Notes: a model not told the origin generated them from the letters alone. DNA of 64,000 bases from Rickettsiales bacterium (GCA_021156175.1 JAJNBL010000003.1:49675-113674), one strand, 5' to 3'; numbered from the stretch's first letter, positions 24,905 to 25,328 are shown. A program made the numbers and translations.

Positions 24905-25328
24905 GAAGAGGTGGATGCTCTACAAGAGGTCGTCATTGCGAGGAGGAGTGACAACGACGACGAAGCAATCCAGTTAAACAATACTTTGATATAAATCAAC
25001 CCATTCGGGGTTCATTTCTTCAATCAGCGCAAGTTTTTTTTTACGGCTTCCACCCTTAATCTGTTTTTCACGTAAAATTGCACTTTCCATTATTTCATGC
25101 TGTTCGTACCAGACAAGTGTAGTGCAACTATATGTTTTAGTAAATCCTTCAGTGAAATGCTGTTTATGTTCGTGGGTACGTTTTATCAGATTGGATGTAA
25201 CGCCTGTGTACAAAGCACCGTTACGTTTGTTTGCCATAATGTAAACACAAGGATGCTTCATATGTTAGATCTGGATTGCTTCGCTAGTCGCTCGCAATGA
25301 CGACCTCTTGTAGTGAGTCTACCTCTTG
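24905..25328. mobile_element. GIY-YIG ORF embedded in a long palindrome (terminal inverted repeats about 60-70 bp)
   Basis: The left arm 24905..24973 is the reverse complement of the right arm 25271..25328. The same arms occur without an ORF at 4275..4407. Confidence 0.6.
24974..25261 (-). CDS. GIY-YIG nuclease family protein (UPF0213/COG2827-type)
   Basis: 95 aa. The sequence VYIMANKRNGALYTGVTSNLIKRTHEHK...LVWYE...AILREKQIKGGSRKKK fits the family. Confidence 0.85.
   Translation of the reverse strand: MKHPCVYIMANKRNGALYTGVTSNLIKRTHEHKQHFTEGFTKTYSCTTLVWYEQHEIMESAILREKQIKGGSRKKKLALIEEMNPEWVDLYQSIV

Follow-up and report, generated by a model that had tools for sequence, protein, structure and literature searches.

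This analysis concerns a small GIY-YIG nuclease gene and the inverted repeats around it in the trp operon of an uncultured bacterium. The DNA is a stretch of 64,000 nucleotides (nt), called the window here at its full length, from a 522-kb contig of a metagenome-assembled genome (MAG) labelled Rickettsiales bacterium (GCA_021156175.1, JAJNBL010000003.1:49675-113674). The GIY-YIG open reading frame (ORF), called ssn below, and two inverted arms (24901-24973 and 25271-25332) that bracket it lie in the spacer between trpG and trpD. ORF calls place all four genes, trpE, trpG, ssn, and trpD, on the minus strand, the cassette being co-oriented with trpE-trpG-trpD. An earlier description made from the DNA alone (the sequence-only reading) had placed the ORF in the loop of a long palindrome, and its coordinates for the ORF and the arms, including the arm ends relative to the stop and start codons, all hold on recheck. 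The left arm ends at 24973, one base before the stop codon of ssn (TTA on the plus strand at 24974-24976), and the right arm begins at 25271, 9 nt past the ATG (25259-25261). The positions of all features are collected in Table 1.

The nuclease, its flanking motifs, and the gene-less doublets

The 95-aa product has a single Pfam match above cut-off, PF01541, which spans residues 4-76. The public annotation (P0001) instead gives 87 aa, beginning at the internal Met9 and thereby losing the first strand of the GIY motif (VYI). Of the two, the start at 25261, which gives the 95 aa of the sequence-only reading, is the better one according to the alignment of homologs. The search for homologs yielded over 5,500, of which the 120 best listed measure 87-131 aa, most of them about 95 aa. 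Other searches with the protein gave no relative of solved structure at E <= 0.01 and no NCBIfam match above cut-off, the group I intron endonuclease TIGR01453 being a weak, sub-threshold one (E=0.0017, 18 bits vs a cut-off of 56). A transposase domain is absent from the protein, Pfam finding GIY-YIG only and Y1_Tnp not being matched.

Single-domain GIY-YIG nucleases of about 94 aa have recently been described as the Ssn family, CDD cd10448 (GIY-YIG_unchar_3), which is treated as a separate clade (Chenal et al. 2025, Nat Commun 16:2388, PMC11893778, the source of everything in this paragraph). Membership was defined by blastp at E < 1e-10 and at least 75% coverage against Neisseria meningitidis SsnA (CAX49033.1), with cd10448 as the top CDD match. 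SsnA binds the hairpin repeat CGTCATTCCCGCGMAVGCGGGAATCYRG (NTS in this case, SRM in general) only as single-stranded DNA (ssDNA) and cuts a few nt upstream of it; the critical positions are GTC 5' of the stem and C after it. The typical layout is NTS-ssnA-NTS, with an SRM nearby in 71% of homologs and on both sides in 42%. Site-specific ssDNA cleavage has been demonstrated for four homologs (N. meningitidis, N. elongata, and N. wadsworthii, plus W. pipientis), and the mutations Y6A, Y17A, and E64A inactivate SsnA. In N. meningitidis, transforming DNA that enters as a single strand with the repeats on it is restricted by this activity, and SRM-rich genomes are enriched in symbionts, including Rickettsia and Wolbachia.

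The window protein fits this description in its size, since it is a single domain of fewer than 150 aa, and in its catalytic residues. In an alignment of eight sequences that includes NTS-flanked homologs, Y7, Y18, and E65 are among 30 invariant columns and correspond to Y6, Y17, and E64 of SsnA. Identity to homologs encoded beside exact NTS consensus matches is 49-52%. As a stand-in for N. meningitidis SsnA, we used the protein of locus L173, whose gene has an NTS on both sides; it is 51% identical to the window protein over 91 of the 95 residues (E=6e-34). The label UPF0213, given in the sequence-only reading, was right in pointing to a small GIY-YIG protein but is a loose one: Escherichia coli YhbQ is only 23% identical over 77 aa (E=2e-4), vs 51% for the NTS-flanked homolog just named and 47-72% for SRM-flanked homologs in general.

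The arms had been described as reverse complements of each other. Two blocks are indeed complementary, one of 42 nt at 86% (24901-24942 with 25291-25332) and one of 13/13 nt (24961-24973 with 25271-25283), but the palindrome is interrupted, because the inner segments between the blocks are unrelated and of unequal size (18 nt on the left and 7 nt on the right). Each arm carries one oriented copy of a motif of the form CGTCATTGCGAG...CGAAGCAATCCAG, and the 7-nt 5' end (CGTCATT) and 7-nt 3' end (AATCCAG) of this motif are those of the NTS consensus. All arms of this kind in the window read CGTC-ATTGC...GCAAT-C, with 1-2 substitutions on the left arm of the doublet E1 described below; GTC ahead of the stem and C immediately behind it, in this orientation, are what mark an Ssn motif. 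The 19-mer AAGAGGTCGTCATTGCGAG occurs 4 times in the window at <=3 mismatches, vs 0.01 occurrences expected. Upstream of its motif, each arm bears an extension that in this lineage is about 28 nt long, has the form AAGAGGTRG-N8-ACAAGAGGT, and lies over the region of the predicted cut; AAGAGGTRG and ACAAGAGGT recur on element arms across the window. The outermost TAG of the trpG-proximal extension (25330-25332) is the stop codon of trpG.

Arms of the same type also occur without a gene. The copy noticed in the sequence-only reading, here called E1, proved real: it consists of two motifs, at 4298-4325 (+) and 4346-4381 (-), and folds as ssDNA at -36.4 kcal/mol (z = -7.0). A third element, E2, is newly found here and was absent from that reading. 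It lies between two divergent genes, an ETF-QO-like ORF (15753..17405, -) and a radA-like ORF (17619..18992, +), and is kept in three strains with 2 differences. Inspection by eye of E1, E2, and the ssn cassette found no convincing target-site duplication; a CTA that might be one at the cassette has no counterpart at E1.

Table 1. Positions of the features discussed, counted from the first letter of the window
Feature	Position	Strand	Basis
ssn-like gene, 95-aa single-domain GIY-YIG nuclease, stop codon included	24974..25261	-	ORF + Pfam PF01541 E=1.2e-13
trpD-proximal SRM-like motif, 43 nt, CGTCATTGCGAG-[25 nt]-GCAATCCAG, 3' end abuts ssn stop codon	24931..24973	+	arm comparison
trpD-proximal arm upstream extension, TAGAG-AAGAGGTGGATGCTCTACAAGAGGT, holds region of predicted cut	24901..24930	+	part of 42-nt inverted repeat
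trpG-proximal SRM-like motif, 32 nt, minus-strand reading CGTCATTGCGAGCGACTAGCGAAGCAATCCAG, ends 9 nt before ssn ATG	25271..25302	-	arm comparison
trpG-proximal arm upstream extension, TAGGCAAGAGGTAGACTCACTACAAGAGGT	25303..25332	-	arm comparison
Gene-less doublet E1, two inward-facing SRM-like motifs + extensions, 20-nt loop, in divergent intergenic region	4275..4407	.	arm-type match
Gene-less doublet E2, degenerate NTS-type pair, ACAAGAGGT-GTCATTTCCGCTTTGGCTAAGAATCCAT / 20-nt loop / GATCCTCGCCTCCACGGGAATGACA-CCTCTT	17459..17546	.	motif recurrence
Patch divergent from L253, 81-97% identity per 300-nt bin, with ssn presence/absence and SRM-type polymorphism	~21815..25565 (L253 3637-7044)	.	pairwise bins
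trpD, anthranilate phosphoribosyltransferase, directly downstream of cassette	23842..24858	-	ORF call + comparison with TrpD of relatives
trpG, anthranilate synthase component II, directly upstream of cassette	25330..25911	-	Pfam GATase
trpE	25921..27576	-	ORF call
ComEC/Rec2 DNA-uptake channel gene, divergently adjacent to trpE	27379-29631	+	Pfam Competence E=8e-66

An Ssn cassette as the best explanation

The link between protein and repeat is best seen at the loci of homologs. Viral contigs were scanned for exact NTS matches and the matching loci were then searched with the window protein, whereby six NTS-bearing loci were found to encode homologs (48-55% identity, E 1e-20 to 1e-28). At two loci, L173 and L229, a canonical NTS on either side faces inward toward the gene, and directly after the stop codon comes CTGGATT, as in the window; the upstream motif is 13-14 nt from the ATG there vs 9 nt in the window. 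Among 27 further homolog loci on viral contigs, 7 have strict inward-facing SRMs on both sides; at about 9 others the gene is flanked by inverted repeats of another kind, 20-46 nt long.

The motif of the window is of a type that we call GCGAG. Repeats of this type flank the closest homologs, in Parasphingorhabdus (L001, with six copies), a soil contig (L247), Nitrosomonas eutropha (L296), and Tardiphaga (L297). These homologs, at 64-72% identity, all have GCGAG-type motifs, homologs at about 50% have NTS-type ones, and L255, a homolog at 47%, has a CCTGAG type (TGTCATCCTGAGCGTAGCGAAGGATC); the protein clade thus tracks the type of repeat. In a curated comparison of stems, the bases are compensatory across SRM types (TTGC/GCAA, TTCCCGC/GCGGGAA, TCCT/AGGA, and TCCCCGT/ACGGGGA). 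Many GCGAG-type motifs (window 25271-25302 (-); L001, L247, L297) also contain GCGAAGC, an unusually stable DNA mini-hairpin sequence, making an alternative to the ATTGC/GCAAT stem fold possible.

GCGAG-type repeats extend beyond the ssn genes. A scan of genome contigs (596 Gb) with the 17-mer GAGGTCGYCATYGCGAG returned 120 stretches, mostly chance matches in high-GC genomes owing to the shortness of the pattern, and the roughly 25 loci with real SRM cores had no ssn within the 8 kb retrieved around each. Head-to-head doublets of this type, REPIN-like and with loops of about 15-30 nt, were seen at L004, L022, L056, L058, L076, L084, L088, L093, L094, L096, L102, and L114. The genomes are mostly Alphaproteobacteria, with a Prevotellaceae MAG (L076) as well, and show no ssn homolog within the 8 kb retrieved. 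At L248 (629-787), two CGTCATTCCGGGG...CCCGGAATCTCG motifs sit next to a GCGAG-type motif, with partial overlap; one genome therefore holds SRMs of different types. A metagenome scan with a long gapped arm pattern gave 11 loci in unrelated soil organisms and no additional copy from the source genome, and since AGAGGT was part of that pattern, these are uninformative as to conservation of the extension.

We therefore regard the locus as very probably an Ssn cassette, that is, an SsnA-like single-domain GIY-YIG endonuclease between two cognate SRM copies. The nuclease-repeat system is already known, having been published in 2025, and the locus adds to it a member from an uncultured lineage of the Rickettsiales, its motif being a variant outside the published search pattern.

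By analogy with the characterized homologs, the protein would bind the SRM only in ssDNA, with the motif folded as a short hairpin, and recognition would depend on the GTC on the 5' side of the stem and the C on its 3' side. Cutting is predicted to take place a few nt upstream of the motif, within ...ACAAGAGGT|CGTCAT, a position carried over from N. meningitidis SsnA. Because the arms are inverted, the two predicted cuts would fall on opposite strands, and both would lie outside the gene. E1 (4275-4407) and E2 (17459-17546) would likewise serve as targets. Judging from Neisseria, the most likely role would be in genome dynamics, that is, in recombination of incoming or replicating single strands. 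The ComEC gene lies two genes from the cassette, which is relevant since Ssn restricts transforming ssDNA in Neisseria.

Several points weigh against this explanation. The published SRM pattern, HGTCWYN(0-2)YYVSBRHN(0-5)WNVSBRGN(0-2)RNCYNB, which does match the NTS consensus, has 0 matches in the whole window, and the cassette consequently lacks SRMs of that pattern within 500 bp on both sides; the close homologs at L001 and L247 also fail it despite obvious repeats. Membership of the Ssn family was reached through NTS-flanked intermediates and not by direct comparison with SsnA (CAX49033.1) or CDD cd10448. Between the conserved blocks the left arm is 11 nt longer than the right one, which could impair recognition. 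A single arm is a weak hairpin with a 5-bp ATTGC/GCAAT stem and a long irregular loop (z -2.6 to +0.4). The sequence-only reading had expected a strong hairpin at this place; the strong structure does exist, but it arises from arm-to-arm pairing and not from each arm alone. An anchor-based count of covariation was noisy, with 49.6% paired vs 42.8% in permutations (0/500 permutations reached the observed value, though the margin was narrow), and we relied on the curated stem comparison because the anchor-only count is diluted by chance anchor matches. Finally, cleavage, ssDNA specificity, and a role in transformation are ascribed to the window protein from its homologs, and the ComEC gene is the one support for competence of the uncultured host.

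Turnover at the trpG-trpD junction and the alternative explanations

Comparison of the trpG-trpD spacer in relatives, a check named in the sequence-only reading, found it variable: it holds an ssn cassette, a gene-less doublet, or neither. In the sister strain L253, from another sample, the gene order is the same and TrpD is 96% identical, and the spacer is 128 nt long without ssn. After the trpG stop codon, it has the 28-nt extension of the window (1 mismatch) and CGTCAT, then another core (CGTCATCCCCGTGTAGACGGGGATCCAT), a 30-nt loop, and the inverted TGTCATTCCCGCGAAGGCGGGAATC, both motifs matching the published SRM pattern. Homology between the window and L253 stops exactly behind CGTCAT and picks up again with base two of the start codon of trpD. 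In L254 (TrpD 69% identical) the spacer holds an inverted SRM pair and no ssn, and in L255, L257, and L259 (TrpD 63-66%) trpG and trpD overlap or are 2 nt apart. L255 carries an ssn cassette between trpD and trpC instead. The ssn-bearing allele of the window was found in a second sample, identical over the 5,582 nt compared.

The cassette of L255 (3489-3877; GCA_964645205.1, CAZYBO010000005.1, an alphaproteobacterial MAG) is a second, independent site in a trp operon. Its left motif overlaps the trpD stop codon, and its ssn ORF, of 107 aa, reads through the right motif.

According to the sequence-only reading, a palindrome at this junction independent of the ORF would break the link between nuclease and repeat. 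Such palindromes exist, in that L253 and L254 carry an inverted SRM pair without the ORF. Gene-less doublets are to be expected in an Ssn system, and the link is therefore left intact; what falls is the notion that the ORF brought the palindrome to the site. An SRM doublet at trpG-trpD predates the present ORF copy or is independent of it. Because junctions in relatives are empty or have the cassette elsewhere, and because the L253 allele is gene-less, the cassette is accessory and turns over at the trp site. The recurrence of (A/T)TTGATA in the loops of E1 and L253 and among the last codons of ssn prompted the idea that doublet loops are remnants of the 3' end of ssn. It was dropped as unsupported, since the shared stretches are 6-7 nt long within AT-rich DNA and, for L253, the placement with respect to the motif does not fit.

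The difference between the window and L253 lies in a patch; the adjoining 2.4 kb on one side and 1.6 kb on the other have 0 mismatches. Besides the ssn site and trpD, the patch takes in the 3' end of trpG (reaching 236 nt into the gene), an unknown ORF, and a portion of a GGDEF gene, and extends about 3 kb beyond trpD. It is about 3.4 kb long and looks like a recombination tract or import, that is, like allelic exchange by homologous recombination. Its most divergent part is a 383-aa ORF (22653-23801, -), with 81% nucleotide identity in one 300-nt bin; this ORF has no Pfam family above cut-off, with a weak Schlafen-helicase match at 19 bits vs a cut-off of 24, and its divergence suggests that it is fast-evolving or frequently exchanged.

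The sequence-only reading had suggested that the nuclease may mobilize or maintain its own hairpins. The tie between enzyme and hairpin is demonstrated for Ssn homologs (PMC11893778) and so is not new; mobilization is conjecture. A self-mobilizing family resembling insertion sequences (IS) or REPINs, made up of SRM-ssn-SRM units and gene-less doublets with Ssn as the mobilizing enzyme, is possible but on the unlikely side. Two variants can be conceived: an analogue of RAYT or TnpA (IS200) transposases, or a homing nuclease with repair copying the ssn-bearing allele into a cut doublet. The layout is IS-like, with the gene between inverted repeats and with doublets reminiscent of miniature inverted-repeat transposable elements (MITEs) or REPINs, and the authors of the Ssn family have raised the same hypothesis (PMC11893778). 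Cassettes occur at different trp sites (trpG-trpD in the window, trpD-trpC in L255), with empty junctions in L257 and L259, and GCGAG-type doublets are scattered over about 25 genomes without ssn within the 8-kb stretches. The ssn+ and ssn- alleles lie inside the divergent patch, a possible co-conversion tract, and homology with the sister allele ends exactly after CGTCAT, beside the predicted cut.

The chemistry speaks against it. GIY-YIG enzymes are hydrolytic nucleases that do not use the covalent HUH/tyrosine chemistry, and hydrolysis with no covalent intermediate gives no strand transfer by itself. The protein has no transposase domain, the three elements show no evident target-site duplication, and the predicted cuts lie on opposite strands, whereas IS200/IS605 excision takes place on the same strand. 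Homologous import fits the patch equally well, given its reach into trpG and far past trpD and its peak divergence over the unrelated 383-aa ORF. E2, moreover, is static in three strains, and a single allelic pair was seen (n=1).

A more specific form, which we consider unlikely, is a single-strand homing element: Ssn would cut both motifs of a gene-less doublet, on opposite strands, during replication or DNA uptake, and repair from an ssn-bearing homolog would make the cassette and co-convert its flanks. The patch of about 3.4 kb and the homology break exactly after CGTCAT would then be its footprint. If this were true, Ssn would be the first GIY-YIG enzyme known to spread its own gene via ssDNA hairpin targets, and the presence of ssn genes in doublet loops would be explained.

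It is considerably more doubtful that the palindrome serves mainly as a regulatory hairpin of the trp operon (a terminator, an attenuator, or an mRNA-stability element), the ORF being carried along. In lineages whose TrpD is 69-96% identical, the junction retains an inverted SRM pair, and the transcribed arms could pair across the ORF. Other relatives do without any spacer, their trpG and trpD overlapping or nearly abutting (2 nt); arms of this kind are also present away from trp genes and beside ssn homologs in unrelated surroundings; and the SRM core type at this very site differs between sister strains. Within the element, neither a terminator-like site with a T-run nor a convincing promoter-like site was found, and an Rfam scan of the window gave two tRNAs only, with no family at the arms. 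Since ssn runs in the direction of trpE-trpG-trpD and no promoter of its own is evident, it is probably transcribed together with the operon.

A classical free-standing GIY-YIG homing endonuclease with a double-stranded DNA (dsDNA) target at the junction, to which the GIY-YIG domain, the weak sub-threshold TIGR01453 match, and the presence/absence polymorphism might point, is scarcely credible: unlike enzymes of the I-TevI type, the window protein, at 95 aa, has no DNA-binding domain, the repeats that flank its gene occur elsewhere too, and its close family members cut only ssDNA (PMC11893778).

The locus has little weight as a discovery, for the nuclease-repeat link and the NTS-ssnA-NTS layout were published in 2025, as were the parallels with REP/RAYT and IS200/IS605. 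What is new here is the E2 doublet, the gene-less canonical doublet of L253 at the same site, and the data on cassette exchange from that sister strain. The ssn+/ssn- allelic pair, with different SRM cores at one site, is a natural test case for whether and how Ssn cassettes move. Tracking of repeats by protein clade helps in choosing enzyme/motif pairs with new specificities, which is the biotechnological interest of the family. The GCGAG-type motif is very common and escapes the published pattern; published SRM counts may therefore underestimate the system.

One observation away from the locus concerns an LRR-family gene. It is intact (260 aa) in strain SRR15168755 (L290 3876-4658) and in two pieces of 92 and 190 aa in the source contig (~18994-19776; L291 3876-4659), possibly as a recent pseudogene or frameshift.

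Comparison with known systems

Homing endonucleases of the I-TevI type share the GIY-YIG catalytic domain with the window protein and are likewise accessory genes with presence/absence polymorphism. They differ in having a long DNA-binding extension, in cutting dsDNA at the intron-less or gene-less allele, and in having no dispersed hairpin repeats as flanks. E. coli YhbQ (UPF0213) is a small stand-alone GIY-YIG protein of about 100 aa, and what separates it is the low identity (23%, E=2e-4).

The IS200/IS605 elements, with the Y1 transposase TnpA, are similar in their small gene, sub-terminal hairpins, and ssDNA substrate. Their ends are not inverted repeats, both of their cuts are made on the same strand, and their enzyme is of another catalytic family; at the window locus there is no TnpB or partner gene.

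The likeness to RAYT/REP systems (REPINs and BIMEs included) is one of layout: a single-copy nuclease gene lies between inverted short hairpin repeats, and the repeat is dispersed, often as inverted doublets. The repeat is recognized as ssDNA, for the window system by analogy with the Ssn homologs. Inverted dispersed hairpins and gene-less doublets are both present, which makes this a resemblance in layout and not membership, for no HUH-Y1 transposase (Pfam Y1_Tnp) lies between the repeats. RAYTs are HUH/Y1 enzymes that form a covalent 5'-phosphotyrosine and can rejoin DNA, whereas the window protein is a GIY-YIG hydrolase of unrelated fold and chemistry. The analogy with REP geometry drawn in the sequence-only reading was thus apt, but the RAYT mechanism is not simply transferable to a hydrolytic GIY-YIG enzyme. 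The likeness to insertion sequences, REP/BIME-RAYT, and IS200/IS605 had already been drawn, and mobility proposed as a hypothesis, by the authors of the Ssn family (PMC11893778).

The Ssn/SRM system itself is the closest. The window differs from it in its core, which is of the GCGAG type with an ATTGC...GCAAT stem and an irregular interior of 14-25 nt and is missed by the printed pattern, in the conserved upstream extension of about 28 nt with a duplicated AAGAGGT on the arms of its lineage, and in the position of the cassette inside a trp operon, with a protein known from sequence alone. The likenesses are more numerous: a conserved catalytic Tyr/Tyr/Glu set in a single-domain GIY-YIG protein about 95 aa long; a gene between inward-facing motifs that start with CGTCAT and end with AATCCAG, the stop codon abutting a motif; gene-less copies elsewhere in the genome; and a host in the Rickettsiales, a group named as SRM-rich (PMC11893778).

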